A stretch of 64,000 nt of DNA from Malacoraja senta (Eukaryota): NCBI GenBank assembly GCA_038087875.1, contig CM075993.1:10914001-10978000 (forward strand). The letters run 5' to 3'. Numbering within the stretch: position 1 is the stretch's first letter; every line of letters starts with the position of its first letter. The notes below the pieces were generated by a model. That model saw only the letters and a program-made list of their open reading frames with translations, ran no database searches and had not been told where the DNA came from. Made by a program: the position numbers and the translations under genes. Shown here piece after piece: positions 1-54,749 of this stretch.

Positions 1-297
1 TCTCAGTTTAAGGATAAAGGAGAAATCTTTTAGGACTGAGATGAGAAAAACATTTTTTACACAGAGAGTGGTGAATCTCTGGAATTCTCTGCCACAGAGG
101 GTAGTTGAGGCCAGTTCATTGGCTATATTTAAGAGGGAGTTAGATGTGGCCCTTGTGGCTAAAGGGATCAAGGAGTATGGAGAGAAGGCAGGTACAGGAT
201 ACTGAGTTGGATGATCAGCCATGATCATATTGAATGGCGGTGCAGGCTCGAATGGGCTGAATGGCCTACTCCTGCACCTATTTTCTATGTTTCTATG
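1..297 (+). mobile_element. CR1 LINE 3' end fragment
   Basis: Encodes SLRIK..FFTQRVVNLWNSLP (CR1 ORF2 C-terminus), then the 3' UTR and a (TTTCTATG)n tail. Confidence 0.9.
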
Positions 298-16000: not shown

Positions 16001-16468
16001 TTTTCCGATCAAGGTGTGACAGTACGAGGTTCAGTGTTGTTGAGACTGCGTCCTCTGTGGATCGGTTGGCTCTGTAGGCGAACTGCAGTGGGTCTAGGTC
16101 GGCAGGTAGACTATTTTTGATATGCTGCATAACCAGTCGCTCAAAACACTTCATTACTATGGGTGTTAGAGCCACTGGTCGAAAGTCATTATGGCAGGCT
16201 GGGTTTGGTTTCTTCGGGACAGGGACGAAGAGTGCCACCATCGTCCCTGTCCCGAAGAAACCAAACCCAGCCTGCCATAATGACTTTCGACCAGTGGCTC
16301 TAACACCCATAGTAATGAAGTGTTTTGAGCGACTGGTTATGCAGCATATCAAAAATAGTCTACCTGCCGACCTAGACCCACTGCAGTTCGCCTACAGAGC
16401 CAACCGATCCACAGAGGACGCAGTCTCAACAACACTGAACCTCGTACTGTCACACCTTGATCGGAAAA
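16001..16468. repeat. 228-bp inverted duplication (fold-back) with a 12-bp spacer
   Basis: 16001-16228 is the reverse complement of 16241-16468; the same 37-aa N-terminus appears in ORFs on both strands. Confidence 0.95.
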
Positions 16469-17711
16469 ATACTTATGCCAGGATCCTCTTCATAGACTTC
16501 AGCTCTGCTTTTAATACAATCATTCCGCAGCAGTTGGTGGAGAAGTTGGAGCTATTGGGAGTTGATGCTGGCACATGTAACTGGGTCCTGAACCTTCTGT
16601 CGCAACGGCAGCAGACAGTCAGGGTGGGCAGTATGACATCAAAAACCATAGCCGTGAGCACTGGCTCGCCCCAAGGCTGTGTCCTAAGCCCCCTGCTGTT
16701 TAGTCTGCTAACACACGACTGTACTGCTAGACTCAACAACAACTTCATCAACAAGTTCGCTGATGACACAACAGTGGTGGGTCTCATCAGTGACAATGAT
16801 GAGTCGGCGTACAGGATGGAGGTGGAGCTGCTCACAGGATGGTGCAAATCCCACAACCTCATTCTCAACGTGGGAAAAACGAAGGAGATGGTGGTTGACT
16901 TCAGGAGGGCGGGAAAACAACACCATACACCTCTGCACATCGATGGAGCTGATGTGGAAAGGGTCAACAGCGTGAAGTTCCTAGGACTCCACCTGTCAGA
17001 TGACCTGACGTCCACGACCAACACCACAGCACTGGTCAAGAGAGCCCAGCAGCGACTACACCCTCTCCGAAGACTGCGTAAAGCAGGTCTCCCCACTACA
17101 CACCTACGAACTTTTTATAGGGGGACAATCGAGAGCACATTAACCTACGGCATCACTTCCTGGTTCGGGAGCTGCAAGGCGTACGAACGGCACCAACTAG
17201 ACAGGATTGTGAAGACCGCCAGCAGGATTATTGGTGCTCCACTCCCTTTCCTGCTGGACATATACAGGAAGAGATGTATCAGCAGAGCCATCTCCATCAT
17301 CAAAGACCCCTACCACCCATCCCATCACATATTCTCCATCCTGCCATCTGGGAAGAGGTACCGGAGCATTAGGTGCAAAACCAGCAGGATGCTCCTCAGC
17401 TTCTTCCCGCAGGTTATAAGACTGATAAACGGACTTTGTCCCCTGCCAAAGTATCGTGCACCAACCACCAACCTGGACACACTGCAGCAGAGCCACTGTC
17501 GTGCCGCTGCCGATCGGAACGCCTGTTGATGTTTACTAGAGTAGAGTGTTAATTTGTTCATGATATATGTATTTTTACTTCTATTTATTTTTTACTGCAC
17601 ACACTGAAATGGACACTGGTTGAGGAACGTTTTTTTGTTTCCTCTGGGTATGCGAATACTCAGGAAATGACAATAAAGATATACAATACAATACAATACA
17701 ATACAATACAA
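16229..17711 (+). mobile_element. 5'-truncated Rex1/Babar LINE with uninterrupted RT-coding frame (within ORF 16117-17529)
   Basis: [41 protein letters not shown]; (CAATA)n tail. Confidence 0.92.
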
Positions 17712-23146: not shown

Positions 23147-23596
23147 CACAACTACCCCCCTCTCTGCTCAGTCGGAAAGGGAACTGGCTTTCACTAGCAC
23201 CTCTCTTTGTCAACTGCCTCCGAGCACCAGAGACCCGGGTTCGATCCTGCCCTCGGGGTGCTGTCCGTGTGGAGTTTGCACGTTCTCCCTGTGACCACAT
23301 GGGTTTTCCCCCGGGTGATCTGGTTTCCCCCTCACATCCCAAGGACATGTGTATTTGAAGGTTAATTAGCCTCTGTATATTGCCTCGAGTGTGTCGGAAG
23401 TGGATGAGAAAACGGGATAGAATATAGCTAGTGTGAATGGGGGAAGAAAGGACACAACCTGAAACATGACCCATTCCTTCCAGAGATGCTGCCTCTCCCG
23501 CTGAGTTACTCCAGCTTTTTGTGTCTGTCTGATTGTTGGTCAGCATGGACTCTGTGGGCCGAAGGGCCTGTATCTCAAATTAAATAAAACTAAACA

Positions 23597-23893
23597 CCAC
23601 CGGAAATTGGAGGAGCAGCACCTCATATTCCGCTTGGGCAGTCTGCACCCTAGCGGCATAAACATGGACTTCTCCAATTTCCGGTAGCCCCTTGCTGTCT
23701 CCTCCCCTTCTCAGCTCTCCCTCAGCCCTCGGGCTCCTCCTCTTCCTATCTCCTTTCTCCTTTCTTCTTCCTGCCCCCCCCTCCCCCCCACCCTACATAA
23801 GTCTGAAGAAGGGTTTTGGCCTAAAACGTTGCCTATTTCCTTCGCTCCATAGATGCTGCTGCACCCGCTGAGTTTCTCCAGCACTTTTGTCTA
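23597..23893 (+). mobile_element. Penelope-like element 3' end (family B)
   Basis: HRKLEEQHLIFRLGSLHPSGINMDFSNFR* (end of the GIY-YIG domain), pyrimidine-rich UTR, then a degenerate hammerhead motif at 23803. Confidence 0.85.
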
Positions 23894-25827: not shown

Positions 25828-26495
25828 TCCAGGGTCCTCGACAGTCCCTTCAGGTTAGGCAGAGGTTCACTTGCACGTCCTCCAACCTCATCTACTGCTC
25901 AAGATGTGGATTCTTAAACATCGGCGAGACCAAACGCAGACTGGGTGAGCGTTTTTGCTAAACACCTCTGTCGCTCAGTCAGCTGGACCTACCTGATTCC
26001 CAGTTGCTGGACACTTTAATTCTCCTTCCCATTCCCACACAGACCTTTCTGTCCTCGGTCTCCTCCATTGTCAGAGTGAGGCTAAACGCAAATTGGAGGA
26101 ACAGCATCTCATATTTCACGGGCAGTTTACAGCCCAGTGGTATGAACATTGATTTCTCTCACTTCAGGTAGCCCCGGCATTCCCTTTCTCTCTCTATCCC
26201 TCCCCCACCCAAGTCACACCAGCTTCTCATCTTCCCCCAACAAACAGTTTACAATGGCCTGTTTCCTTTATCATCGTTACATTTTTGCATATCTTTCATT
26301 CATTGTTCTTTATCTCTCCACATCACCGTCTATATCTCTTGTTTCCCTTATCCCTAACCAGTCTGAAGAAGGGTCTCGACCCGAAACGTCACCCATTCCC
26401 TCTCTCCAGAGATGCTGCCTGTCCCGCTGAGTTACTCCAGCATTTTGTGTCTATCTTCGATTTAAACCAGCATCTGCAGTTCTTTCCTACACGGT
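25828..26495 (+). mobile_element. Penelope-like element 3' end (family A): degraded GIY-YIG plus pseudo-LTR
   Basis: Reads as FQVRQRFTCTSSNLIYC..IGETKRRLG..HFNSPSHSH..RKLEEQHLIF; intact hammerhead core at 26363-26390. Confidence 0.88.
26363..26390 (+). ncRNA. Minimal type-I hammerhead ribozyme motif (family A, representative copy)
   Basis: CTGAAGA-A-GGGT[CTCG]ACCC-GAAAC-GTC; located in a Penelope pseudo-LTR, the established site of these motifs. Confidence 0.7.
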
Positions 26496-33613: not shown

Positions 33614-34040
33614 CTTTCTCCCCCCTCATTCCCCTCTCCTATTTCCCCCATCCCTCTTTCCCTTTCCCTTCCCCCCCTCTCTTCCCCCCCTTCCCGCTCC
33701 CTTCCCCCTCTCTATCCACACCCCCTTCCTCTCTCTTCGCCCCTCTCTATCCCCTCCACCTCCCTCCCTCTCTCCCACTCTCTCCCACTCTCTCTCCCCT
33801 CTCCCTCCCCTCTCCCCTACACCCCTCTTCCCCCATCTTTCTCTCCCCCCTCCTTCCCCCCTCTCCACTTCTCTCCATCCACTCTCCCCCCTCTCTCCCC
33901 CTTCACCCCTCTCCCTGTCTCTCCCCCTCTCCCCCTCCCTCCTCTCTCCTCTCTCTCCCCTCCCCCCCTCTCCCCCCTCTCCCCCCCCTCTCCCCCCCCT
34001 CTCCCCCCCTCCTCCATCCTCTCTCTCTCCCCCTCACCCC
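33614..34040. repeat. Polypyrimidine/polypurine (C/T-rich) tract
   Basis: About 425 bp of almost exclusively C and T on the plus strand. Confidence 0.95.
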
Positions 34041-34452
34041 ATGGAGTATGTCCACACTGTCCCAGTGCACCATTGCCGGCAGTGTACACAGCACTCTTTA
34101 TAGCCTCTCGAGTAATTAGTGCATTTACAGAATGAACACACTCAGTTTGCTATCATCTGGTTAATCGCCAGTTTAATTAATCTAATTAAATCAATTTGCG
34201 AATCTATTCAAGTGTAAATGTTGGTTGGTAAACAGAGTTCTGCCTGTCAACTCAGCCAGCAGAAACCTCCTTTTGTTACCATATGGCAGGCGTCACAATG
34301 TATGTAAGTTTCGTTTAGCGATACAGCACGGAAACAGGCCCTTCGGCCCACCGGGTCCGCGCCGACCAGCAATCCCCGCACATTAACACTATCTTACATG
34401 CACTAGGGACAATTTACATTTTTTATTCCAAGCCAATTAACCTACAAACCTG

Positions 34453-34640
34453 GAGAAACTCAGCGGGTGCAGCAGCATCTATGGAGCGACCATCAGACTG
34501 ACCATCAGTCTGAAGCAGGGTTTCGGCCCGAAACGTTGCCTATTTCCTTCGCTCCATAGATTGCTGCTGCACCCGCTGAGTTTCTCCAGCATTTTTGTGT
34601 ACCTTCGATTTTCCTGCATCTGCAGTTCCTTCTTTAACAC
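34453..34640 (+). mobile_element. Family-B hammerhead mini-element inserted in a SINE
   Basis: 14-bp TSD aacctacaaacctg (34439-34452, 34641-34654); short inverted 5' segment. Confidence 0.85.
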
Positions 34641-36303
34641 AACCTACAAACCTGTACGTCTTTGGAGTGTGGGAGGAAACCGAAGCACCCGGAGAAAACC
34701 CATGCGGTCACGGGGAGAACGTACAAACTCCGTACAGACAGCACCTGTAGTCAGGATCGAACCCTGGTCTGTGGCGCTGTAAGGCAGCAACTGTACTGCT
34801 GTGCCACCGTGCCACCCTGTGGTGTACGTTCCCAGGGTGGTATCTCGCCTTCCTGATTCTCTCCTCCCCGACTGACGATTCTTCCCCAATCTGCCTCCCT
34901 CCCTCCATCCCAGTTCTCCTCCCTCCGCTGAATCATGGTTGTTCTTCGCTCGTTCTCTCCCTTGACTCTTCCCCCTCACTCTCTCCTCACCTTGTGGCCG
35001 GCACGGCGCCAGAGACCCAGGTTCGATCCTGACTACGGGTGCTGTCTGTACGGAGTTTGCACGTTCTCCCCGTGACCTGCGTGGGTTTTCTCCGGATGCT
35101 CCGGTTTCCTCTCACACTCCAAAGACGAGCAGGTTTTCTGGTTAATTGGCTTCAGTAAAATTGTAAATTGTTGCTAGTGTGTGTAGGATAGTGTTAATGT
35201 GCGGGGATCGCAGGTCAGCAGGGACTAGGTGGGCCGAAGGGCCTGTTTCTGCGCTGCATCTCTAAACTAAACTAAACGAATCCACAGCTCCACTGCCTGT
35301 TCTACCACATTGGAGGCACTCACAACAAACTGTTCACTCCCTTCGAGGAACAAGCTGGCTCCAATGAATTCTCAGGATGTGTTTCTATGGTCTTGGTGCA
35401 GGTGCAGAGTGAGACACCAACACCTATCAAAGCGTGATGGATTATTGTGTAGGAAGGAATGGCAGATGCTGGTTTACACTGAAGATAGACACAAAATGCT
35501 GGAGTAACTCAGTGGGACAGGCAGTATCATGGGAGAAAATGAACTGGTGACATTTCGGGTCGAGACCCTTCCTCAGACCCCACTTCATTCTGCTCCATCC
35601 AGACTGCAGTGTAAATCGACCAATATTCAGAATAAAATTTTATGACAATGATTTGACAGTAACAGCCAGTGCGAATACCCAGGCAAGTCAACACAAGTAG
35701 ACAGAAGCAGGGCTGCAAGAAAAAAAAATTTGAGAGGATTGAGCTGCTTGGACAAGTTACAAACATTCATCTTTAATTATTCTAGTTTAGTTTAGTCTAG
35801 AGATGCAGGGCGGAAACGGGTCCTTGATCAGGGGCCAATTAACCGACAAACCCGCACGCCTTTGGGACGCAGGAGGAAACCGGAGCACCCGGAGGTCACA
35901 GGGAGCACGTGCAAACTCCACACAGGGAGCACCCGAGGTCAGGATCGAATTCTGGTCTCTGGCGATGTGAGGCAGCAGCTCTACCCGCTGCAGCGTTGTG
36001 CCACCCACCCTGGTCTATTACTCTTCCATACTAGCCAATGGCCACGATATTTACAGTTAGAACCATTTTGGGTTGGATAGCATTGGGGTGGGGGGGGGAT
36101 GGGGGTCACAAGCTGGGGGTCAACAGTTAAGAAAGTTATTTGTCATATGTACTGAAACAGAACTGTGAAGTTCTTACTTGTAGCACCACCACAGGTCTAT
36201 AGACACACTACACATAATACACATAATAATATATATTTAAGAAATAATGAACCCCAATATTGGTGCAATAACAAAATAAAAAAATGACAAAATAAAAGCC
36301 TGA

Positions 36304-36730
36304 AGGAGCTGTCTCACTTGGGCGACCTAATTGGCGAGTTTAGAAGAGTTTGTCCTCGACTCATACTCGCAGCATGGTCGACACGAGGTCCTAGGAGGTC
36401 TTTGTAACTCTCCTTCATGCTCGAGAGTAGTCCCCGCGTACGCGAGGCCCCAGCTAGGTCGCGGCGTTGAAAAATGCCTGCGAGTAAAAAAAGGTCGCCA
36501 TGGAGAAAATTGATATTTTTTTTACTTGTATGTTTAGTCGTAGTAGGTCGTAGTAGGTCGGCATGTTAGTCGTAGGTAATCGAGGGTAGTCAAAGGTAAT
36601 CGAAGCTAGTCGAAGGTAGTTGTAGATAGTCTTCAACATAGTCGAAGGAGGTTGAAGGAGGTCTTCAACATGACACTTTTTCAAACTCTCCTAAACTCAC
36701 GGATTAGGTCGCCACAGTGGGACAGCCCCT
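36304..36730. mobile_element. PIF/Harbinger-like MITE
   Basis: TIRs aggagctgtctcact / agtgggacagcccct extending about 45 bp; 3-bp TSD TGA. Confidence 0.85.
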
Positions 36731-37869
36731 TGAAGTTCCTAATGCAACCAAGACAGTCTCTAGTTTGGTGTTTAATTGGTGTGCATAGTGTTTAATAGCT
36801 TGATATCAGTGGGGAAGTAGCTGTTCCTGAACCTACAGTTTTCAGGCTCCTGTACCTTCTTCCTGATGGCAGGGGTGAAATGAGTGTGTGGCCAGGGTGG
36901 TGTGGGTCTCAGATGATGCCGGCTGCCTTTTTGAGGCAGCGACTCCTGTAGATCCCTTCGATGGTGGGGAGGTCAGTACCCATGATGGACTGGGCAGTGT
37001 TCACCATGTGTTGCAGTCTTCTTCATTCCTGGGTGTTTGAGTTGTTGACCCGGTCCGTGATGCAACCAGTCACTAATCTCCTCAATCTTTTAAGGAAGTA
37101 GAGGCATTGATTAGTGGGGTCATTGGCTGGAGGCCCTCGGACTATCCTTGACCGGACTTTGCTGGCTTTACCTTGCACTAAACGTTATTCCCTTATTAAT
37201 GTATCCATACACGGTAAATGGATTGATTGGAATCATGTATTGTCTTTCCGCTGACTGGATAGCCTTTCACTGTACCTCGGTACACGTGACAATAAACTGA
37301 ACTGAGGGGTGGGGGGTCACTGGCTTGGGAGGGGTGGGGTCTGTCTGGGTGGGGGAACATTGTCAGACTTGACCCGAAATGTCACCTATCCATGTCCTCC
37401 AGAGATGCTGCCTGACCCGCTGAGTTACCCCAGCACTTTGTGTCCTGTGCGTTAACCAGCATCTGCAGTTCCTTGGTTTTCCCTAACTCTAGGCTTCTGC
37501 TCTGCACATTTGCTGGGACGTAGCGGTTGACGGTAAGTCTGAAGAAGGGTCCCGACCCGAAACATCACCCATTCCTTCTCTCCAGAGATGCTGCCTGTCC
37601 CGCTGAGTTACTCCAGCACTTTGTGTCTACCTTCGGTTTAAACCAGCATCTGCAGTTCCTTCCGATGCCTGACGGTAATTCTTGCTCTGCACACTGCGTG
37701 ACGCTCATACGACACTGCTGCAACCCCAAGCAAAACACAAAGTGCTGGAGTATTAGTAACAGCGGGTCAGGCAGCATCTGTGGAGAACATGGATAGGCGA
37801 CCTTTCGGGTCGGGACCCTTCTTCAGACTGATTGTTGTAGGTGGGCTGTTTTGGATCAAGAATCCATGT

Positions 37870-37995
37870 GTTTAAGAAGGAACTGCAGATGCTGGAAAAT
37901 CGAAGGTAGACAAAAATGCTGGAGAAACACAGCGGGTGCAGCAGCATCTATGGAGCGAAGGAAATAGGCAACGTTTCAGGCCTATCTCGGGCCTG
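37870..37995 (-). mobile_element. Family-B mini-element truncated within the hammerhead
   Basis: 13-bp TSD caagaatccatgt (37857-37869, 37996-38008). Confidence 0.8.
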
Positions 37996-39065
37996 CAAGA
38001 ATCCATGTAACTGTCCAAATGTATTTTATCAGTTGTTCTTGTCCCTGCCGCAACTACCTCCTCTGGCAGCTCGTTCCATACACCCACCACCCTCTGTGTG
38101 GAAAACGTTGCCCTTGTGTTTCTATTAAATCTTTCCCCTTTCAGCCCAATCATATGTCCTCTGGTTCTTGATTCCCCTCCTCTGGGTAAAAGACTGTGCA
38201 TTCATTCTATCTATTCCCCTCATGATTTTATACACCTCCACAAGATCATCCCTCACCCGCCTGCACTCCAACCTCTCCCTATAACTCAGGCCCCTCAACT
38301 CCTGGCAATATCTGTACACTGTGGACGACTCGACTGTAATCATGTATTGTCTTTCCACTGACTGGATAGCATGCAACAAAAAAGCTTTTCACAGTACCTC
38401 GACAATACACTAAACGAAACTAGACCGAAGTAAATTCAACTAAACTCAACTAAATTAAACTAAACTAAATTAAACAAAACTGAATTAAACTAAACATTCT
38501 TGTAAATCTTCTCTACGCACTTTCCAGCTAGGAGTTGACCTTTGTATTGGCATAACCGAACACAGACACTGGTGTAACTCAGCGGGTCAGGCAGCATCTC
38601 TGGAGAGAAGGAATGGGTGACGTTTCGGGTCGAGACCCTTCTTCGTGTTTGTGCGGTGTGGTAGTTTGGTCACTGGTGGGTCTGGGGAACTGGGTCTGTG
38701 ACTGGGAGAGGGAACACTGCATGCGCCACTTTCTACTCTGCGAAGAGATTGGGCTGTGGCTGGTAGCGCTCCTTCTGTGCACTGGGTGGCGCTCACACAA
38801 CACTGCTACATTCCCAGCCAGTTCCCAGCATACGGAAATCCCCGAGATTGATCGGAATTCAGGAGTCAAGAGTGTTTTATCGTCAGATGTCCCAGACAGA
38901 ACAATGAAATTCTTGCAGCAGCAACAGAATATGTAATCGTAGTGCTCTGTAAACAGGATAATAAATGGAAACAAAATCCAGTTTATGAATGACCTATCAT
39001 CTACCTCATTGGAGATCTTCAGACTATTTTTAATCAGACTTTACTAGACTGCGTATGGATAGGAT

Positions 39066-39297
<232 letters not shown>

Positions 39298-39606
39298 TCA
39301 ACAGAATAAAATAAGATGAAGTGCTGAAGTAACTCAGAGGGTCAGGTAGCACCCTGTTGAACATAGATGAGTGATATTTCATCTGTATACTGAAGAATCC
39401 TGACCTGAAATATAACCAATGCATGTTCTCCTGAGATGCTGCCGGACCTGCCAGCATATTGTGTCTTTTCTTGTAAACGAGCGTCTGCGGTGCTTATCCA
39501 AGACCGCTAGCAATTGCAGACAATTGTGGATGCTGCCCAATCCACGTGCCACACGTGAGGCTGCAGAGGAAGATGAGAGCCCATGGTATCAAAGGGCAGA
39601 TACTAA

Positions 39607-40382
39607 AGGTGTTAATTCTGGCCAAATTGGAGAGGCCAGGACACTAAAATTGAGTAAAGGCTTCTGGGCTGCTAGGCCATTTGGTCAATTTAAATGTGCC
39701 TTCTGCAGAAATGGGACAAGCTGCAGAATGGTGCCAGCTTGTCTAGAGCCTAGATAAGAGTTGCAGGAAGAGGATGGAACATCTGCAGATGCTGACAATT
39801 AGGTGTAAATTGCATGAAACGGATTGGATGAATGCAAACCAGACATACACATTGTAAATATTGTTGCAAAGCTTTACTATGCTAGATGTTGATTGGGTCA
39901 AGTGTTGAGCCTTGTCTAGGTTTCTTGAATATCAAGGCACATGTTGCATAATTCATCTCTGTTAAACTGCATCTAGAAACTTTGTCAGATACATTGTATT
40001 AGTCACTGTATTATTGGGTTGGGGAACTGTCTATCATGTACTGTGTTAATCGATATCTGTTATTGGACTGTATAGAGACTATCCCCATGTGGTTCAGCCC
40101 TCAAGGTTCGGGGACCTATAAAAGGCCGCTCCCACGAGGTTCTGTGTCGATCTTCTGGGAGAGCGCTTAGGACTGCGTGACCTTCTGGAGTGTCTCTGCT
40201 TGAACGAGGCTTAGAGGGCTTGGCCAGGCAGATACAAGGATCAAACCCGTGATGGTTCGGTATAGTAGTGGGGAACTGTTATTGTGTTTTTCCAAAATAA
40301 AGGTTAGATGCGCAAGTGCTTGACTCAGTGGTTTTTGACTGAAACTAGACGGGGGGGGAAAGCTTAGAACGAGCTATTTACA
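39607..40382 (+). mobile_element. Solo LTR (Gypsy-like) inserted in a CR1
   Basis: CR1 coding sequence (RAHGIKGQIL|TWI) breaks at 39606 and resumes at 40383 with 4-bp TSD ctaa; TATAAAA near 40117, AATAAA near 40295, ends in TACA; 5' TG offset by 3 nt. Confidence 0.7.
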
Positions 40383-41320
40383 CTAACATGGATAGCAGGT
40401 TGGCTGGATGGCAGAAGGCAAAGAGTGGCAATAAAGGGGTCATTTTCTGCTTGGGTGCCAGTGACTAGAGGAGTCACTGTTCTTCTCCTTCTATACTAAT
40501 GATTTGGACGAGGGGATTGAAGGCCTTGTGGCCAAGTTTGCGGATGATACGAAAATAGGTGGAGGGACAGGTAGTGTAGAGAAAGCAGGGACTCTGCAGA
40601 AGGACTTGGACAGGTTGGGAGAGTGGGCTGGGAAGTTGCAGATGGAATTTAGTGTAGCAAGGTTGGAGTCGTGCATTTTGGTAATAGGAATAAAGGCTTA
40701 GACTATTTTCTAAATGGGAGGAGAATCCAGAAATCAGAGGTGCAAAGGGACTTGGGAGTGCTGGTGCAGGATTCCCAAAAAGTGAATCTGCAAGTCGAAT
40801 CGGTAGTAAAGATAGCAAACTCAATGCTAGCATTTATTTCAAGAGGGCTTGTATACAAATACAAGGATGTAATGCTGAGGCTCTATAAGGCGCTGGTCAG
40901 GCTGCATTTGGAGTATTGCGAAAAAAATTTGGGCACCATATCTGAGGAAGGATGTGCTGGCTCTGGAGAGGGTCCAGAGGAGGTTTACAAGAATGATCCC
41001 AGGAATGAGTGGGTTAACCTATGATGAGCGTTTGAGTGCACTGGGCCTGTACTCGCTGGAGTTTACAAGAATGAGGGGGGACCTCATTGAAATGTACCGA
41101 ATAGAGAAAGGCTTGGATAGAGTGGATGTGGAGAGGATGTTTCCTCTAGTGGGAGAGTCTAGGACTAGAGGTCATAGCCTCAGAATTAAAGCACGCTCCT
41201 TTAGGAAGGAGATTAGAAGGAATTTCTTTAGTCAGAGGGTGGTGAATCTGAGGAATTCTTGGCCACAGAAGCTGTGGAAGCCAAGTCAATGGATATGTTT
41301 TAAAGCAGAGATGGATAGAT
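40383..41320 (+). mobile_element. CR1 ORF2 RT fragment
   Basis: AKFADDTKIGG, QRDLGVLV, RTRGHSL; frameshifted. Confidence 0.9.
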
Positions 41321-43905
41321 TATAGATTGTTTCTTAATCTATCACACAAACCAACCTCCCTTCCATTGACTCCATTTACACCTCACGCTGCCTCGGCAAG
41401 GCCAGCAGCATAATCAAAGACCAATCTCACCCCGGTCACTCCCTCTTAGTTACCCCAGCGCTTTGTGGCGTTTCACTTTAAACATGGGCGCTGATGCCGC
41501 CGGTCTGCACCAGCAAGCCCTTCTTCACTGGTTCACACGGCTGTTGTAGCGGCTAACATTGTAGCTCTTCAGTGTGCCCCCTCAGTCACCCTCGGGCTCC
41601 TTCCCCTCTCACCTGCTGTGACGCTTCCAAGGCGAGTCTGGGGGAGGGGGGGGAGGGGTTGGAGGAGGTGACGGCGGTGGTGGGAGGAGAGAGCAGGAAG
41701 AGGAGGAAGGTGCAGGTAAAAGCAGAAACATGCTACTGATTTTGGATGATCAGCCGTGACCATATTGAATGGCGGTGCTGGCTCGAAGGACCGAATGGCC
41801 TTCTCCTGCACCTATTTTCTTTGTTCCCCCCCCCCCAGGTCTCACCTCCATCCCAGCCAATATCCTGGTGAATCCTGAAAATAGGCGCAAAATGCTGGAG
41901 TAACTCAGCGGGACAGGCAGCATCTCTGGTGAGAAGGAATGGGTGACATTTCGGGTCGAGACACTTCTTCAGACTGAGAGGCAGGGGAGAGGGAAACACA
42001 GAGATATGGAAAGGTCAGGTGTGAAAATGAGACATCAAAGGGGATGAAGTTCAAGGATCATGGTGAGCTAGGGGAAGGTGACAACGAACTACTCCAAATG
42101 CGGCCAAACCAAAGTCCTTAAGAGCAGCATCATTGCATCCTAACTCTTACACTAAATGCCCGTGTTGTGCTCCATGTTCCCCAGGTTGGGGTCCGTGTTC
42201 TCGAGATTCACCTGGGCCTCGACAGGTTCAGGTGATCAGCCTTTCCCGTGTGTGCCACACCTGCCCACCTCGCACTTGAGATCAGCCACCAGCTCGCCCG
42301 GACGTTTGTCTTCTGCTTGGAACAGAAGTGCTGGAAACACCTAGCAGATCGGGCAGCGTCTGTGGGGAAGAAAGGAGTGAATGATCATGTGGCTGCAGGG
42401 AGGGAGGAGGCTGGAGAGAACAGTATGTGATTGGGTGAAAGATCAAGTCTGCCTATATACGTGTAAGTGTATTCAGCTCCAGATTCCAATCAAAGGGAGT
42501 TCTGTTGCTTGAAAACTATTCTCAGTGTGACATTCCATAACGTAATGGTGTTTTATCATTAATGTCTTATTATTATTAATGTTTAGTGTTTTCTGAGTCA
42601 TTCGTAACTGTCACTGTATGTCATGTTGTTACTTGTGGGCGGAGCACCAAGGCAAATTCCTTGTATGTGAATACTTGGCCAATAAACGTACTTACTTAAA
42701 GGTGCATCATCTGCACAAGCTTCACAAAATGCGAGTTGTAAGTGAAATGGAAATTGATCCATACATATTTTAGTTTAGTTTAGTTTAGTTTAGAGATACA
42801 GCGTGGAAACAGGCCCTTCAGCCCAAAAACTACGCACTGACCAAAGATCCCCGCACATTAACTCTATCCGACACACACTAGGGACAATTTACACATAGCA
42901 AGCCAATTAACCTACAAACCTGTACGTCTTTGGAGTGTGGGAGGAAACTGAAGATCTCAGAGAAAACCCACGCGGTCACGGGGAGAACGTACAAACTCCG
43001 TACAGTCAGCACCCGTTGTCGGGATCGAACCCAAGTCTCTGGCACTGCAAGCGCTGTTAGGTAGCGACTCTACTGCTGTGCCACCTTGCTGCCATTTCTA
43101 CACAGAAGGTGGCGAGTGCCTGGAACGCACTGGTGTAGATGCAATAGTGGCGTTCAAAACATTCTTAGACAGGCAGGGAATGGAGGGATATGAGTTATGC
43201 GTAAGTAGATAAGTGATGGTCTTGGCATTATGTTCGGCACAGACATTGTGGGCTGAAGGGACTGTCCCTGTGCTGTACGGTTCTATGTTCTATATACATT
43301 TCATGAGAGCGAATTTAAATTTTTATTCCATAGCTCAGATTGTGAATTCAGTAAGTGTGAACTTCCATCCCCCAGCCCACAGTAACATGGCACGTATGTA
43401 TAGTACATGCACTGAACCCCCAGCATCCATACTAGTATAACATAAAACTAGCATGAAACGGGTGCTCAATGGTTGGTCTAGATTCAGTGGCCGAAGGGCC
43501 TGTTTCTCTGCTGTATATTTCATACCTCAACCCTTGACCTTGGGTGCATTCTGAGCCAACATTTTTTTTTAAAGTTTAGTTTAGAGATACAGCACAGAAA
43601 CAGGCCCTTCGGCCCACCGGGTCCGTACCGACCAGCGATCCCCGCTCATTAACACCATCCTACACCCACTAGGGACAATTTTTTAAAAACAATCACCTAA
43701 CCAATTAACCTACAAACCTGTACATCTATGGAGTGTAGGGGGAAACTGAAGATCTTGGAGAAAACCCACGCAGGTCACGGGGAGAACGTACAAACTCCGT
43801 ACAGACAGCACCCGTAGTCGGGATCGAACCCGGGTCTCTGGCTCTGTAAGCGCTGTAAGGCAGCAACTCTACCGCTGCGCCACCATGACCGTGAACATGG
43901 GGTAT

Positions 43906-44503
43906 GTTGGTCAATGTGCGCAAGTTGGTCAAAGTGGGCAAGTTGGTCAATGTGGGCAAGTTGGTCAAAGTGGGCAAGTTGGTCAATGTGGGCAAGTTGG
44001 TCAATGTGGGCAAGTTGGTCAATGTGGGCAAGTTGGTCAATGTGGGCAAGTTGGTCAATGTGGGCAAGTTGGTCAATGTGGGCAAGTTGGTCAATGTAGG
44101 CAAGTTGGTCAATGTGGGCAAATTGGTCAATGTGGGCAAGTTGGTCAATGTGGGTAAGTTGGTCAATGTGGGCAAGTTGGTCAATGTGGGCAAGTTGGTC
44201 AAAGTGGGCAAGTTGGTCAATGTGGGCAAGTTGGTCAATGTGGGCAAGTTGGTCAATGTGGGCAAGTTGGTCAATGTGGGCAAGTTGGTCAATGTGGCAA
44301 GTTGGTCAATGTGGGCAAGTTGGTCAATGTGGGCAAGTTGGTCAATGTGGGCAAGTTGGTCAATGTGGGCAAGTTGGTCAATGTGGGCAAGTTGGTCAAT
44401 GTGGGCAAGTTGGTCAATGTGGGCAAGTTGGTCAAAGTGGGCAAGTTGGTCAATGTGGGCAAGTTGGTCAAAGTGGGCAAGTTGGTCAATGTGGGCAAGT
44501 TGG
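43906..44503 (+). repeat. 18-bp minisatellite, about 33 copies, derived from a CR1 3' UTR
   Basis: Unit gttggtcaatgtgggcaa, running into gttgggccgaa..cctgtttcc; single-copy counterpart near 6926-6965. Confidence 0.95.
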
Positions 44504-46450
44504 GCCGAAATGCCTGTTTCCACGCTGTCAGCACGGTGGCACAGCGGAAGAGTTGCTGCCTCACAACGCCAGAGTCCCGGGTTCAATCCTGCCGATGGGT
44601 GCTGTCTGTATGGAGTTTGTACGTTCTCCCTGTGACTGCGTGGGTTTTCTCCGGGTGCTCCGGTTTCTTCCCATACTCCAAAGACGAACAAGTGTGTAGA
44701 TTAAATTGCCTTCGGTAAAAATGGTAAATTGGCCCTAGTCTGTAGGATAGTGCGGGGATCGCTGGTCGGCGCGTACTCGGTGGGCCGAAGGGCCTGTTTC
44801 CACACTGTATCTCTAAACTAAACTAAAGATCCATGAGGTATCTGATGCACAAGACCTGCATGGGACTCTGATCGGAGTGGATGCTGTTGTTACACATCTG
44901 TATCGAGGCATAGAGTGTGGGTACAGTGTGGAGCATCTACCAGCATGGTGGAACCAGGGCACTCTTGGGTTGCTGAGATATACCTGATGTATCTTCCACC
45001 ACCAATGGCCACAGGGTGAGTTGTTACAAGCAGCAGCCCTGTAGAATTGGTCCCTGCAATGTGAAGAGACAGCTCAATAATGCAAGCACTGAACTTTGGT
45101 ATCAAGTCTCTGATGAACTTTGATTCAAATAAACTCACCTGTGTCAACCTACGCTCTGCCAGGCTTTGTCCTGCCCCTCCTCATTCCAGCTTTCATAACC
45201 CCCTCCCCCCTCCCCCCCCATCTATAATCAGTCTGAAAAAGGGTCTTGACCTGAAATGCCACCTAGCCAAGTTCTCCAGAGATGCTGCCTGTCCCGCTGA
45301 GTTACTCCAGCTTTTTGTGTCTATCTTCTGTTTAAACCAGCATCTGCAGTTCCTTCCTACACATATCCAAACATTAACCCTGTATCCCTTTCTGCAGACT
45401 TACTGTGTGTTTCTGATATTTGTCATGTGGAGTCGGTACACTCATCCCAGGTGCATTTTTTCAGGTGCAGAATACCTGATTGCACCTGGCACTAATGAAT
45501 GAAACAACACTTAAAGAGAGAAAGAGACATGAGCATAATTAATGTGGCATGGTGGTGCACCGGTAGAGTTGCTGCCCTACAGCGCCAGAGACCTGGGTTT
45601 GTTCCTGACCAAGGGTGCTGTCTGTTCAGAGTTTGCATGTTCTCCCCGTGACGTGGGTGGGTTTTCTCCGGGATCTCCGGTTTCCTCCCACACTCAAAGA
45701 CATACAGGTTTGTAGATTCATTGGCGTGGTATATGTGTAAATTGTGCCTAGTGTGTGTAGGATTGTGTTAATGTGCGGGGATCGCTGGTCGGTGCGGACT
45801 CGTTGGGCCGAGGGGCCTGTTTCTGCACTGTATCTCTAAACTAAACTAAAAGTATAGATAGACACAAAATGCTGGAGTAACTCAGCGGGACAGGCAGCAT
45901 CTCTGGGGAGAAGGAATGGATGACATTTTGGGTCGAGACCCTTCCTCAGGCGTAAAAGCATAATCAAGAAATCTCACAAGTGTTTCTGTGGTTGAAAATT
46001 CAGCTTGTTGACAGATTACAACCCTCTTTTATACAGTCACAAAATGGAAACAGGCCATTTGTCCCACCACATCCATGCAGACCAGTGGGGGCATCCATTC
46101 AAGTTAATACCATCTTCCAGTCATTGGTCTGCAATAATCATACAGCATGGAAACAGGCCCTTCGGCCCAACTTACCCATTCCGGCAAAGATGACCCCATC
46201 TAGCCCCACCTGGCTGTGTTTGGCCCACATCTTGATTAATACAGGTGTCAGAGGTTATGGGGAGAAGTATGGGGAGAAGGCAGGACAATGGGGTTAGGAG
46301 GGAGAGATAGATCAGCCATGATTGAATGGTGGAGTAGACATGATGGGCCAAATGGCCTAATTCTACTTCTATCACTTATGACCCCTCTAAACCTTTCCTA
46401 TTGATTAAAAATGTCTTTTAAATGTCATTATAAAATATATGATCTTCCAT

Positions 46451-46523
46451 TGGCGAAACCCAGGATTGAACTAGGGACTGTTAGATCTTCAGTCTAACGT
46501 TCTCCCATCTGAGCTATTTTGGC
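46451..46523 (-). pseudogene. tRNA-Phe(GAA)-like gene, probably a pseudogene
   Basis: 73 nt GCCAAAATAGCTCAGATGGGAGAACGTTAGACTGAAGATCTAACAGTCCCTAGTTCAATCCTGGGTTTCGCCA; about 9 differences from the vertebrate tRNA-Phe sequence as recalled. Confidence 0.85.
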
Positions 46524-48426
46524 AGACAGTCTTCTATCCCTGGATGATGGATTCAAGTACTTGTGGAGACACTTCTCAAACACCTGCTTCCACCACTCTC
46601 TACAATGCATGTCAGGTAGTCCCACTCTCTGGGTGAAGATCATTCCCCTTGAATCCCCTCGCTTTTCAAGAGAGAGTTAGATTTAGCTCTTAGGACTAAA
46701 GGAATCAAGCGATATGGGGAGAGAGCAGGAATGGGGAACTGGTTTTAGATGATCATATTGAATGGCGGTGCTGGCTTGAAGGGCCGAATGGTCTACTCCT
46801 GCACCTATTTTCTATGTTTTCATATTTCTATGTTTCTATGAAATCTCTTACTCAAAATTGTCCTCAAGTTTCCTTCATCGCTGATATGGAGTAAAAAAAA
46901 TCTTCAGTGTACCCTCACTCGTAATTTTATGTACAGTACCTCAATGAAGTTTAGTTTAGTTTAGAGATACCGTCCGTGCTAACCAATAATCACCTACTTT
47001 ATACACTAGCTCTATCCTACGCACTAATTTGCATAAACCAATTAACCTACAAACCTGCACGTCTTTGGAGTGTGGGACGAAACCGAAGCACCCGGAGAAA
47101 ACCCATGTGCCCACAGAGAGAACGCACACACACTGTACAGACAGCACCCGTAGTCAGGATCGAACCGGGTCTTTTGGGCTGTGAGGCAGCAACTCTACCA
47201 CTGCGCCGCCGTGCAACAAAGTCTGAACCTCCATCGCTTCAAGGAAAATAAACCCAGCCTCTCCGGTTTCTGCTCATAACTAAAATGTTCCTTTCCTATA
47301 GAGAATGAATGAATGATACTTTATTGTCATACGTGACAAGTCACAGCGATATTCTTTTCTTGCATTCCAAAGGTATGCAAAGAGTCGCCACATAAAGGAC
47401 GCTGATAAAGTTACAAAATATCCCGCGCCAGGTCCTCCTTTGTTGTTTAGTGTGGTGTCCAGAACTGCAGAACCAGGGGCCACAGTTTAAGAATAAGGGG
47501 TAAGCCATTTAGAACGGAGACGAGGAAACACTTTTTCTCACAGAGAGTGGTGAGTCTGTGGAATTCTCTGCCTCAGAGGGCGGTGGAGGCAGGTTCTCTG
47601 GATGCTTTCAAGACAGAGCTAGATAGGGCTCTTAAAAATAGCGGAGTCAGGGGATATGGGGAGAAGGCAGGAACGGGGTACTGATTGCGGATGATCAGCC
47701 ATGATCACATTGAATGGCGGTGCTGGCTCGAAGGGCTGAATGGCCTACTCCTGCACCTATTGTCTATTGTCTATTGTCTATTGTCTATTGCATGCAGTAC
47801 TTCCGTTGAGGCCTATCAAGACTTAATAAAAGTAGAGCATAACCTCCCTGTTATTGTACACAGAGTTCGAGACTGATGACGGCCAGAATATCACATGCCT
47901 GCTTAACCATGTTGTCTATCTCCATGGCCATTTTGAAAGTTCTTTGGACTTGAACACCAAGGTACGTCTGTTTCCACGTACTCCCAGGAATGCGACTAGT
48001 CCTGGTGTAGGTAGTCTCATTTGTATTCAGAAAAATTCATCACCTCACCTCATATTCATCGGGATTAAACTCCACCTGCCATTTCTCGGCCCACTGCACC
48101 AACACGTCAACATATTACCCTGGAGCTTAAGACCACGGCTCATGATGAGTGTTTGACGGCACTGGGCCTGCACTCCCTGGAGGTTAGAAGAGTGAAGGGG
48201 GACTTGCTTGAAACTTACCGAATGGTGAAAGGCTTGGATAGAGTGAATGTGGAGAGGATGTTTCCACTAGGGGGAGAGTCTCGGACTTGAGCTAATAGCC
48301 TCAGAATTAAAGGACATTCTTTGAAGAAGGAGAAGAGGAGGAATTTCTTTAGTCAGAAAGTGTTGAATCTGTGGAATTCTTTGCCACAGAAGGCTGTAGT
48401 GACCAAGTCAACAGATGGAGATAGAA

Positions 48427-48596
48427 GGTACACAAAAATGCTGGAGAAACTCAGCGGGTGCAGCAGGTCTGAAGAAGGGTTTCGGCCCGAAACGTTACCT
48501 ATTTCCTTCGCTCCATAGATGCTGCTGCACCCGCTGAGTTTCTCCAGCATTTTTGTGTACCTTCGATTTTCCAGCATCTGCAGTTCCTTCTTTAAC
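48427..48596 (+). mobile_element. Family-B hammerhead mini-element inserted in a CR1
   Basis: 16-bp TSD acagatggagatagaa (48411-48426, 48597-48612); intact core at 48469-48496. Confidence 0.88.
48469..48496 (+). ncRNA. Minimal hammerhead ribozyme motif (family B, representative copy)
   Basis: aggt-CTGAAGA-A-GGGT[TTCG]GCCC-GAAAC-GTT-acct; the aggt/acct flanks can form helix I. Confidence 0.7.
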
Positions 48597-48789
48597 ACAG
48601 ATGGAGATAGAATCTTGATTAGTATGGGTGTCAGGGTTTATGGAGAGAAGGCAGGAGAATGAGGTTAAGAGGAAGAGATCGATCAGCCATGATTGAATGG
48701 CAGAATGGCCTAATTCTGCTCCAATCACTTATGACCTTATGACCACTCCCTCACTGTCAACTCACATCACCAGCCATCGGTGAATGCTA

Positions 48790-50152
48790 ATTGTGCCTCG
48801 TTCATCAAAACCGAAAAATGAATAAGAAGACAAAAACGAAAAATATTTTTTTTAAAAGGGGACCATAACGTGTTGATATACCTGCTTCATTTCTCACCGC
48901 ACCCATCACCCTGTCCGTGAATCGGTTTACTTCCAGCGTTGAGTTGCACCATACTATAGTTGTAATGAATCAATGAAAGGAGACCATATCTTTGAAAATT
49001 GCTCTGATTTTTCTGCTAAGACGAGTCTCATATCTTCAAGATGTGACGTCTCAGACATGCTTGTGATCCACATTTTAAGAGTTGGGGTAGAAGCATTTTT
49101 CCAAAATTTAAGTATGATTTTTTTGCCATTATCAGGCCGTAATTAAGGAAACATCTTTGAAATATATATATATATATTTATTTTTAATTTTTAATTTATT
49201 AGAAGTACATTACATTACAACCACATACATTAGTACTCGTCACATATATCTTCTTACAATTAATGTACTCCGTTTGTTTTTTACACTAATAAAGGGAAAG
49301 GATGAGATTGAGAGAAAGAAGAAAGTGAAGGAAAAGGTGAAAGTGTAAAAAATGTGACAAAAAGAAAGAACGAAGATCCTATAAGAACAAAATTAAAAAC
49401 AAAAGAAAAAGAGTTAAGAAATAGCCCTAGAAAAGAAGAAGAAAGAGAAAGAGGGAAAAGAGAAAAACAAATAGTTTTTGCAAGCATCACGCAAATGGGA
49501 CATACCAACTCTCCAACTTTCATCCCCCCTGTCTTTGAAATATTGATAGCTCAGAGCAGGCTCCTGCTATTCCGAAAATAATCAATTCTGTATAGGGGTC
49601 CAGTTTTGTTTTTAATAATTTGGAGAAAATTTCAAAAATTCCTTTCCAAAATTTATGGAGTTTTATGCAAGAGGCAAAGGAGTATGTTATAGTTGCTTCT
49701 TGAGAAAGACATTTGTCGCAGATAGGAGATACATTTGGAAAAATCTTATTCAGTTTAGTTTTTGAGTAATATAGCCTGTGTAGTATTTTGAATTGGATTA
49801 GAATATGTCTAGCATTAATCGAACAATTATGTATATATAGGAGATATTTTTCCTATCTGTTTATGGAAATTTTTAGGCCTAATTCCTCTTCCCATTCTCT
49901 TCTAATTATGTCTGATAATGGAATTTCTATATTTAGAAGGATATTGTACAAGTATGATATTAGATTATTTGATTCTGCGTTTCTATTCATACCTTCATCT
50001 AATATATCTGGCAACAGAGTTTGGTACTCGTGGGTATATGTTTTCAAATAATCTCGAATTTGAAGATATCTGAAATATTGATTACCTTTCAGATTGTATT
50101 TCGACTGTAATTTCTGGAATGATAGTAGGTTTCCCATTTCATACAAGTCTCC
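48790..50152 (-). mobile_element. Two adjacent or nested L1 3' fragments
   Basis: LLSFQKLQSKYNLKGNQYFRYLQIRDYLK; similar to the L1 ORF at 59083-60195. Confidence 0.8.
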
Positions 50153-51354
50153 AGAAGCAGAACACCCCACTACAGTTGGAGTGTACAGGTTTAAGGTGGG
50201 AGGGGAAGGTTATAATGGGCTCCTGAGGAGCAACTTTTCACACAGAAGGCAATGGGAACGTGGAACGAGCTGCCAGAGGATAATCTAGAGGCAGGTCCAA
50301 TTACAACATCTATGGACATTTGCGCTGGTTCATGGGTAGGAGCGGTTTGGAGGGAGATGGGCAAAATGCAGGCAAACAGGACTAGCTTAGATAGTAGAAG
50401 GATCTCGACCCTCAACGTCACCCATTCTCTCTCTCCCAATATGCTGACTGTCCCGCTGAGTTACTCCAGCATTTTGTGTCTATCTTTGGCTTAGATAGAC
50501 ATCTTGGTCATCACGGAGCAGTTGGGACAAATGGCCTGTTTGTGTGCTGTATGACTCTATGACTGGTGACAGTTTGCCATGCTGAGACAGATCCTTTATT
50601 CCTACTCTGTGTTTCAATTGATGAAGGAATACTCAGTCTAAGCTGGTACTTCATCCCCAAATCCACTTGCATTAAATTTTGAGAAGGCAGGAACGGGGTA
50701 CTGATTGGGGATGATCAGCCATGATCACATTGAATGGCGATGCTGGCTCGAAGGGCCGCTTGGCCTTCTCCTGCACCTATTGTCTATTGTCTATTGTTCA
50801 GGAATCTTCTGTTTGTGATTTTATCCAAAACCTGAAAATCCAGATATGGGTGGCATCGTGGTGCAGCGGTAAACTTGTCCTGCACATCTAATTTAAGCTT
50901 TGACCAGCTGACCTTAGCTACGCCCTCTAGTATTAGATTTTTCCTTCCTGGGACATAAAAGGTTCTGACTGTGTACCCCCGAGTTGACTCTCACAATTTT
51001 ATATACTGTAGTCCCAGCAGGTCTCTTATGGGCAGCATGGTGGCGCAGCAGTAGAGTTGCTACCTTACAGTGCCAGAGACCCGGGTTCGATCCTGACAAT
51101 GGGTGCTGTCTGTACGGAGTTTGTACGTTCTCCCCGTGATGGCGTGGGTTTTCTCCAGGTGCACCCGTTTCCTCCCACACTCCGAAGACGTACAGGTTTG
51201 TAGGTTAATTGGCTTTGGTAAAAAAAATTAAATTGACTCTAGTGTAAGATAGTGCTAGTGTGCGGGACGATCGCTGGTTGACACGGAATCGGTGGGCCGA
51301 AGGGCCTGTTTCTGCGCTGTATCTCTAAACTAATATATCATGTATTCTCAATTC

Positions 51355-52810
51355 TACAAAAAGCTGGAGTAACTCAGCGGGACAGGCAGCATGTCTGGAG
51401 AGAAGGAATGGGTGATGTTTTGGGTCGAGACCCTTCTTCGGACTGGTTAGGGATAAGGGAAACGAGAGATATAGACGGTGATGTGGAGAGATAAAGAACA
51501 ATGAATGAAAGATATGCAAAAAGGTAATGATGATAAAGGAAACAGGCCATTGTTAGCTGTTTGTTGGGTGAAAATGAGAAGCTGGTGCAACTTGGGTGGG
51601 GGAGTGATAGAGAGAGAAGGAATGCCGGGGCTACCTGAAGTGAGAGAAATCAATATCCGAGCGAAATATGAGATGCTGTTCCTCCAATTTGTGTTTAGCC
51701 TCACTCTGACAATGGAGAAGACTGAGGACAGAAAGGTCAGTGTAGGTACACAAAAATGCTGGAGAAACTCAGCGGGTGCAGCAGCATCTATGGAGCGAAG
51801 GAAATAGGCAACGTTTCGGGCCGAAACCCTTCTTCAGACAAGGTCAGTGTAGGAATGGGAAGAGGAACTAAAGTGTCCAGAAACCGGGAGATCAGGTTGG
51901 GTCATGCGGGCTGAGCAAAGGTGTTCAGCAAAAAGATCGCCCAGTCCACATTGTGAACAACAGATACAGTAGATGAGGTTGGAGGAGATGCAAGTGAACC
52001 TGAAAGTACCTGTGGAGGGGGTGGTTTAGTTGGGAAGGTCCCGTTGGAGGTGGCAGAAATTTCGGAGGATTTTGCGTTTTACGCGACGGCTGATGGGGTG
52101 GAAGGTAAGGACTAGGGGGACTCTGTCTCCATTGCAACTAGAGGGAGGAGGAGCAAGAGCAAGGCTGTGGGGTACCGAGGAGACACGAGTGAGGGCCTCA
52201 TCTAAGATGGGAGAGGTGAACCCCCGTTCCATAAAGAATGAGGACATCTTGGATGTTCTGGTATGGAACACCTCATCGTGGGCGCAGATGCGGCGTAGAC
52301 GGAGGAATTGGGAGTAGGGGATAGTCTTTGCAGGAACACTACCCTACACACACACTGGCATTATGTCCTCGGTCCCCTCCATTGTCAGAGTGAGGCAAAA
52401 CACAAATTGGAGGAACAGCATCTCATTTTTCGCGTGGGCAGCTTACATCCCAGTGGTATGAATATTGATTTCTCTCACTAGAGATAGCCCCGGCATTCCC
52501 TCTCTCTCTCTATCCCTCCCCCACCCAAGTCACACCAGCTTCTCATTTTCATCCTACAAACAGCTTACAATGGCCTGTTTCCTTTATCATCGTTAATTTT
52601 GTTGCATATCTTTCATTCATTGTTCTTTATCTCTCCACATCACCGTCTATATCTCTCGTTTCCCTTATCCCTAACCAGTCTGAAGAAGGGTTCCAACCCG
52701 AAACGTCACCCATTCCTTCTCTCCAGAGATGCTGCCTGTCCCGTTGAATTACTTCAGCTTTTTGTGTCTATCTTCAGTTTAAATCAGCATCTGCAGTTCT
52801 TACTTACACG
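51355..52810 (-). mobile_element. 5'-truncated Penelope-like element (family A) with inverted pseudo-LTR
   Basis: Minus-strand FFMERGF..RVPLVLTFHP..ILRNF..LQRD plus GIY-YIG remnants; 51355-51730 is mirrored by 52365-52770. Confidence 0.85.
51747..51839 (-). mobile_element. 93-bp family-B hammerhead mini-element
   Basis: 14-bp TSD aaggtcagtgtagg (51733-51746, 51840-51853); begins at gtCTGAAGA. Confidence 0.88.
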
Positions 52811-54749
52811 CTTAATTCTACCTCATTCGGTTCTTCTAGTTTAGTTTAGTTTACTTTCGAGATTTAGAGATACAGCGCAGAAACAGGCCATTGGGCCCAC
52901 CGAGTCATCACCGACCAGCGATCCCCGCACACTGACACAACCCTACACACACACTAGGGACAATTTACAATCTTTACCGAAGCCAATTAACCTACAAATC
53001 TGTACGTCTTTTGAGTATGGGCGGAAACCGGAGCACACGGGGAAAAGCCACGCAGTCACGGGGAGAACGTACAAACTCCGTACAGACAGCACCGTAGTCA
53101 GGATCAATCCTGGGTCTCTGACACTGTATGGCAGCAACCCTACTGCTGCGCCACCTTCTACTGCTGTACTGCAATATTTTTTGCACTTCATATTGCACTA
53201 TGGTCTTGCACCATTCTGCTGTTTCGCATTCCTCAATGCATTTATTATTGCACTGTGTATACTGTTTGTTCTCTGAGATTCATTCAAACAAGGAATTTTA
53301 TTGCACCTTGGTGAATATGACAATAAACTAATTTGAATGCATGAGTTGCCCTCATCTACTCCGAGGCTACATCCTTATTGAACTGCAAACACAATATCCT
53401 TTTCATATGTTGAATCTGCTCACTCTTATAATTTTCCAAGTGTTAGATATGACATTCAGTATTATAGACCAGCATTTTCTCAGGTATTGATCTGTCTAAA
53501 AGGTCGGCAGTGCATGGTTTTATTTTTAGACTTTGGCCGTCAGTGATACTGCGTGGAAACAGGCCCTTCGGCCCACCGCATACCATTGGAGTGTGGGAGG
53601 AAACTGGAGCACCCGGAGAAAACGTCATGGTCACTGGGAGAACGTAAAACTCCGTAGAGACAGCAGCCGTCGCTAGGATTGAACCTGGGCCTCCAACGCT
53701 GTGAGGCAGCAACTGTACCGCTGTGCTTCAATCTCCAAGAGCCATTCCATAATCTTTCGAATTTCATAAGACAGGAACGTAAGCATTTTGTCTGTGGCTA
53801 CCTCTTCCAAATCTCTGGTGAGTGGCTCATCATCTCTTTGGGATCAATTTCCAGCCTCATTCAGTAGTAGAAACAAGGAACTGCAGATGTGCAGAAAAAA
53901 TAACTAGATGCTGGTTTAAACCGAAGGTAGACACAAAATGCTGGAGTAACTCAGCGGGACAGGCAGCGTCTCTGGAGAGAGGGAATGGATGACGTTTCGG
54001 GTCGAGACCCTTCTTCAGACTCAGAACTGCAGATGTTGGTTTACACAAAAGCCCCAAATACAGATTAACTCAGTAAGTTAGGCAGCACAGATAGGTGACA
54101 ATTTGGGTCGGGCCACTTCTTCAGATAGGAATCATCTCCAGTCCGAAGAAGGGTACGGTCCTGAAACGGTACCTATCCATGTCCTTCAGAGATGCTGCCT
54201 GGCCCGCTGAGTTACTCCAGCACTTTGTGTCCTTTCAGGCTCATTAACCTCCATAAGCATTTCTTTACTAATGCTTATTTATTGTCCCTTCTCATTTCCA
54301 CTGGAGGAAGCTGGGAGTTCATGGGGAGCCCAGGTGGAACGGCAAGATGAAGATTAGCAGGGTGAGGTGTACGTTACCAATGTCAGTCCCTCAGTGTAGG
54401 AGACAATTCCCAGAGTTAACAAAGGGCGTGTACTTCAGAAAGGTGAACATGGTGCCAGAGAATTTCAGCACACACAGTTCAAGAGTCAAGAGTGTTTTCT
54501 TGTCAGATGCCCCAAACAGAACAATGACAACAGAATATGTAAACATAGTAATCTGTCGCGCACGCGCACACGCACGCACACGCACACGCACACGCACATA
54601 TTTATTTAATAGCCCGATGGCTGCAGGGAAGAAACAGCTCCTGATCCTGGACATTAGAACATAGGTGCAGGAGTAGGCCATTCGGCCCTTCGAGCCTGCA
54701 CCGCCATTCAATATGATCATGGCTGATCATCCAACTCAGTATCCTGTAC

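Follow-up and report, generated by a model that had tools for sequence, protein, structure and literature searches.

Short Penelope-like insertions with a sharp 5' boundary just ahead of a putative hammerhead ribozyme

In the sampled parts of the Malacoraja senta genome, short copies of the end module of a Penelope-like element that extend as far as its ribozyme motif mostly show an abrupt 5' end immediately ahead of it. Within the 64,000-nt stretch analyzed here (the window), four short insertions are, as judged from sequence comparison, 3'-end (pLTR) pieces of a ~3.9-kb reverse transcriptase (RT) plus GIY-YIG Penelope-like element of the same genome. A first-pass annotation had named these units the best candidate for an undescribed system; they instead represent by-products of a known element class, and no new autonomous system emerged. 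No description of the sharp 5' boundary was found in the papers searched, a set that excluded most subscription journals and Repbase/Dfam.

Element positions are numbered with the C of CTGAAGA as 0, placing the predicted hammerhead cut after +27 (between +27 and +28). The features of the window are as follows.

34439..34452: left target-site duplication (TSD) of insertion 1, 14 bp, an exact match to the right copy at 34641-34654
34453..34489, minus strand: inverted second arm of insertion 1, element +39 to ~+75, assigned by sequence
34490..34502: 13-nt linker of insertion 1, read from the sequence as a re-copied piece around a TCAG-T-CTGA quasi-palindrome
34503..34640, plus strand: sense arm of insertion 1, -7 to +129, with hammerhead motif, hairpin region and tail
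37870..37995, minus strand: insertion 2, a single arm that spans +15 through the end of the tail, 13-bp TSD
48427..48466, minus strand: insertion 3, second arm in inverted orientation, +53 to ~+92
48467..48596, plus strand: insertion 3, sense arm running from -2 through the end of the tail; the 16-bp TSD encloses both arms
51747..51839, minus strand: insertion 4, -2 to ~+91, tail absent, 14-bp TSD
23595..23893, plus strand: longer 5'-truncated copy with GIY-YIG C-terminus, pyrimidine tract and hammerhead motif, ending at +90
9932-10064, 26264-26492, 37536-37663, 52579-52809 and 53906-54021: examples from ~35 further arms of older hammerhead-bearing subfamilies in the window, many starting at -3 to 0

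The four exact TSDs reported earlier (14, 13, 16 and 14 bp) were all verified, as were the start of the 93-bp copy 2 nt ahead of CTGAAGA and the 3' terminus common to three copies, ..CTTCTTWAAC(AC), the last AC of which is shared with the TSD in two of them. Each insertion had been described as holding only the hammerhead and hairpin, which does not apply to 34453-34640 and 48427-48596, as each opens with an inverted arm of ~40 bp that had been missed. Insertion 2 carries 13 extra nt at its 5' end and lacks the hammerhead core. The proposed location inside an older repeat was borne out for insertions 1 and 4, for which exact empty sites (gap equal to minus the TSD) were present in 223 and 38 flank pairs, respectively, of other host-repeat copies; insertions 2 and 3 gave no exact empty pair among host-repeat copies. 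One RNA sequencing run over 34000-39000, dominated by repeat copies and not known to come from M. senta, contained host-repeat copies without insertion 1 and displayed neither a locus-specific empty allele nor a read-end pile-up; it therefore informs neither expression nor polymorphism.

The hammerhead motif (CUGANGA, helix II, GAAA, palindromic CG, NUH and a short helix I) can be read in three of the four insertions and corresponds to the minimal type I hammerhead of Penelope-like elements (PMC4209133). Helix I of this putative ribozyme comprises 2 bp, and the triplet is GUU. Because an Rfam search returned no hammerhead match at E<=1, the assignment was made by motif alone. A tRNA-derived SINE identity was rejected, given no tRNA match at the insertion coordinates and alignment of the whole unit to the pLTR. 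Elsewhere in the window, a tRNA-like match at 46451-46523 (minus strand; Rfam, 41.9 bits) may be a gene or a SINE head, and a perfect inverted repeat with ~80-bp arms at 16150-16317, located where an RT-like frame (16078-17529) begins, is likely a LINE 5'-end fold-back.

The search for an autonomous family-B Penelope, suggested by the first-pass annotation, yielded a ~3.9-kb parent unit, assembled from searches of the same genome and from translation. From 5' to 3', the unit contains an ATG at +163, RT, a CX4CxxC linker, GIY-YIG, a pyrimidine tract, the hammerhead motif and the tail. Its motifs outline a single ORF with RT followed by a C-terminal GIY-YIG domain with two cysteines in the core; the Pfam matches (RVT_1, E=3.7e-6; GIY-YIG, E=0.021) were both below the curated cut-offs. 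The copies seen were all broken, none with an intact ORF. The RT-EN linker motif, CNRKRCYTC, fits the CX2-5CxxC that defines the Neptune/Nematis clade according to the accessible text of PMC8557442, making the parent likely Neptune-type. Within the ORF, a tandem repeat with a 27-bp unit, present in differing numbers of copies, occupies a proline/alanine-rich stretch before the RT. The unit noted after a GIY-YIG stop codon at 23597-23893 was confirmed by translation, with the GIY-YIG C-terminus encoded by 23598-23687 and the stop codon at 23685-23687; no TSD was seen when looked for around the copy at 23595..23893. A ~3.3-kb copy carries a 14-bp TSD (read from the printed sequence), and long TSDs are therefore a family trait. 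The optional tail, inverted 5' copy and TSD that mark EN+ Penelope-like elements are all present, along with the head-to-tail or partial-tandem organization that gives pLTRs (509 tail-to-body junction matches; control, 0). One element-containing locus occurs on six contigs at 98-99% identity, reflecting segmental repeat or assembly redundancy.

Insertion structure was examined in a 1.6-Mb sample composed of the window, 400 kb of adjoining sequence and six other blocks, with arms placed against 27 long natural copies and one script-built majority reference. TSDs of at least 10 bp flanked 83 of 478 young short clusters versus 3 of 951 shuffled flank pairs; they spanned 10-19 bp with a median of 13, and 391 of the 478 clusters had no TSD under strict rules. 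The 3' ends of 468 young arms were found at +84..102 (258), +103..117 (15) and at least +118 (150), with 45 ending earlier, on a reference that stops at +129. These two 3' ends, at ~+92 and ~+129, fit the two RT starts and tail described in the accessible text of PMC11167929. Among 976 arms, 138 neighbors were arranged head to head and 16 tail to tail. Among TSD-flanked copies with two arms, 37/39 joined a short to a long 3' end, suggesting that the two target strands are primed at the two sites. Joining through the quasi-palindrome accounts for some inverted junctions but not for single-arm copies. Two 3' ends, inversions and TSDs are known Penelope features, and the TSDs together with the 5' and 3' end maps support the earlier proposal that Penelope enzymes produced the short insertions.

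The 5' ends are distributed differently from a smooth spread along the parent, the pattern that the first-pass annotation had said would indicate ordinary truncation. For 607 young arms, the stop rate per nt was 0.008 at +31..50, 0.011 at +26..30 (18 stops/1707 nt at risk), 0.013 at +11..25 and 0.026 at +2..10, then 0.150 at -6..+1 (168/1119), followed by 0.012 at -30..-7 and 0.004 at -90..-31. The mode lies at -3/-2, and the stop-rate excess in this 8-nt window is ~15-fold (p=1e-50). Subfamily groups B, C and A, with unlike upstream sequences, gave cliff stop rates of 0.135, 0.101 and 0.165 per nt. Stops at the cliff were found in both 3' classes (103/133 and 59/75 arms) and in 31/44 single-arm, TSD-flanked copies; for ~12-15 of the 240 arms in the peak, the stop is a break in homology to an unsampled subfamily. 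A poly-C stall was rejected, as the cliff is unchanged in group A. The data thus support a 5' peak of the kind that the first-pass annotation expected. The cliff, however, precedes the predicted cut (+27/+28) by ~30 nt, and ribozyme cleavage is therefore not its source.

The stubs are short copies of the parent's end module. We consider it probable that they arise when the enzyme primes at either of two internal positions and copies to the end of an RNA whose start lies 3-4 nt before the hammerhead core. The endonuclease would make a staggered cut to give the 10-19 bp TSDs, and RT would start at ~+92 or ~+129, sites extrapolated from in vitro results on an anole element of another clade. With a template that is linear, probably capped, and begins at the Inr-like TCAGT, cDNA synthesis would end after ~95 or ~132 nt. 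The run-off cDNA would then gain a few untemplated bases and join the other target end, while priming of both target strands would produce two cDNAs that join head to head. Long copies would derive mainly from another RNA pool that has no end at -3, consisting of multimeric read-through transcripts or circles. The stubs, which lack sequence past +130, are probably dead on arrival.

Junctions elsewhere in the genome bear on whether the RNA ends at -3. Eleven matches at 10 loci run from body position +280, through a variable spacer, into (C)AGTCTGAAG (control, 0). An A-run of 6-11 was present in 7/11 and a G preceded the restart in 6/11; two junctions within one locus differ from each other. Copying from -4/-3 on into A-runs at +280, often via an extra G, speaks for a 5' terminus of the RNA at that position. 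R2 RT is known to jump between templates once it has added untemplated nucleotides (accessible text of PMC8857657). In the first 100 of 1571 matches, scored by eye, G preceded A(-3) in 42, compared with 29% expected (p=0.004), and in 39/88 once 8 intact copies with mutations and 4 matches that looked duplicated were set aside; the 1.6-Mb sample gave 18/43 and 16/36 (p=0.05-0.06). This excess is modest (~1.5x) and may stem from ordinary untemplated addition. Since AAA is templated at +281 in 20/68 parent copies, the A-runs may reflect slippage rather than a poly(A) tail, and no AATAAA was found ahead of the +280 site. TCAGT is kept in long subfamily copies, and we take it to fit the Initiator (Inr) consensus. 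By sequence, TCAG(T) after a pyrimidine tract would equally fit the 3' splice-site consensus, and it also fits helix I.

Copies that contain the element body, selected by similarity or pattern, behaved differently from the other arms: 6/35 stopped at the cliff versus 162/208, and 29/35 passed -3. By set, 3/15 stopped in set 1 (of 27 distinct loci, 2 were removed as duplicates and 10 ended earlier) and 3/20 in set 2 (31 loci, 11 ending earlier). That body-containing copies mostly pass -3 suggests a second template, circular or multimeric. Separately, the 5' ends of 5/25 body-containing copies fall at +90..+99, which coincides with the first priming site and may reflect a block by bound enzyme. 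More tentatively, and with the balance of our judgment against it, an additional ~285-nt capped, A-tailed RNA (-4 to +280) may exist beside the full transcript, so that Penelope replication would draw on two template pools. If true, linear capped RNA would yield strong-stop-like stubs and end-to-end jumps, hammerhead-cut circularized RNA would yield long copies, partial tandems and retrozyme arrays, and genomic junctions would record the RNA start, the tail site, the in vivo ribozyme cut and the birth of non-LTR retrozymes.

An alternative that we regard as unlikely is that the template extends further 5' and a bound complex or a structure stalls RT at -3, for example splicing factors that occupy the pyrimidine tract and AG, or else the C-rich tract. 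Retention of the pyrimidine tract and TCAG in long subfamily copies is in keeping with such a roadblock. So is D. virilis, where, in the accessible text of PMC4209133 and PMC2377424, the hammerhead is bordered on this side by the end of an intron, which falls at the 5' boundary of helix I (PMC4209133), and the start site is ~120 nt upstream. However, the same cliff appears in groups with and without poly-C, the A-run and G jumps start at -4/-3, and a fixed sequence block would not predict that most body-containing copies read through while other arms stop. A spliced template was also rejected as the origin, as none of the 240 peak flanks carried a spliced upstream exon.

Less probable still is the view that the stubs constitute a self-propagating, non-autonomous, retrozyme-like RNA family mobilized in trans, as the first-pass annotation had entertained for the four copies. 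Retrozyme-like arrays of the Penelope-like family, by sequence fitting the tandem definition, do exist elsewhere in the genome. Tandem arrays among the 509 junction matches have periods of 138, 165, 254, 260, 275, 299 and 384 bp; of the seven examined, five keep the hammerhead core in each unit and two have units starting at +28. Identical array units could result from later unequal crossover. The following lie on contig 1 (C1).

C1:27817312-27818850 and C1:381271245-381271905: near-perfect 138- and 165-bp arrays, units starting from the predicted cut, without the core
C1:256828850-256832200: 275-bp array, 10 pattern matches, 12-bp TSD, hammerhead motif in each unit
C1:28902250-28907900: 384-bp array, 13 matches, hammerhead motif in each unit

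A retrozyme family would also be compatible with a possible short -4..+280 RNA and with 81A, which occurs in 11/58 short arms and 0/65 long copies, the long set being search-selected. The proposed check for diagnostic mutations nonetheless identified no variant fixed in short copies when 62 short arms of family B were set against 65 long copies, and the candidate markers 81T and 88G both occur in long copies. The four insertions are monomers or inverted pairs with no head-to-tail tandem hammerhead units, and they carry differing variant sets, each common to long copies. Tandem arrays keep sequence past +130, which is absent from the four stubs. These features together indicate that the four insertions are not a retrozyme lineage. 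Raggedness of the 5' ends and the presence of the cliff in three subfamily groups also speak against such a family.

Ribozyme cleavage at the predicted cut is refuted as the main cause of the 5' ends and very improbable overall, with a minor share possible. Beyond the two arrays with units from +28, raw end counts were 374 at +28, 166 at +27, 140 at +29 (with a stricter pattern) and 187 at +32; after hand filtering, contig 1 retained 32/44, 10/36, 12/20 and 22/34 rows, respectively, the 12 at +29 equating to 18 after scaling for the stricter pattern. The ends thus show, at most, a small step at the predicted cut (a drop just 5' of it). Against cleavage, the stop rate at +26..30 equals background, three of the four insertions keep sequence 5' of the cut, helix I spans just 2 bp, the triplet is GUU, and cleavage was dispensable in vitro (accessible text of PMC11167929). 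Ordinary smooth 5' truncation has almost no chance of explaining the data and is refuted in the 1.6-Mb sample by the excess at the cliff, even though stops within +2..+60 and 5' of -7 are scattered at ~0.004-0.026 per nt.

How Penelope-like pLTRs and tandems form, and what role the hammerhead plays, are standing questions. A stub-rich genome provides base-level predictions, namely an RNA start at -4/-3, priming at +92/+129, a jump target at +280 and a minor cut at +28, and the sharp 5' boundary makes the Penelope RNA cycle testable. In retroviruses, synthesis primed close to the 5' end of the RNA soon runs off the template and yields the minus-strand strong-stop DNA, using a tRNA primer in a system that has an integrase. 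We propose that the stubs work like strong-stop DNA, but would be target-DNA-primed and integrated directly, with neither tRNA primer nor integrase.

For the Anolis Poseidon element PAc, the accessible text of PMC11167929 traces the tail to a pair of internal RT start sites, describes cutting and extension on both strands of the target, and finds ribozyme cleavage dispensable. The ORF of PAc starts inside the hammerhead, whereas the ATG is at +163 here, and PAc is a Poseidon element whereas the CX4CxxC linker here is of Neptune/Nematis type. The main text of PMC11167929 contained no treatment of 5' ends of genomic copies that we could find. Non-LTR retrozymes, as portrayed in the accessible text of PMC7229834 and 10.64898/2026.07.22.740005, are likewise pLTR-derived and non-coding, with a type I hammerhead motif and TSDs >4 bp. 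They differ in forming cut-to-cut tandem units, while the four insertions of the window are monomers or inverted pairs, known from DNA. For EN+ Penelope-like insertions, the accessible text of PMC8557442 and PMC3846280 yielded no description of a 5' cliff at the upstream edge of the hammerhead or of A-run jumps, both of which are observed here. The same sources describe a pLTR, an optional 30-40 bp tail, an adjacent inverted 5'-truncated copy and a TSD, and the present insertions share with them two 3' ends separated by ~37 nt, inverted arms that meet head to head, TSDs, partial tandems, a pLTR hammerhead motif, and RT followed by GIY-YIG.
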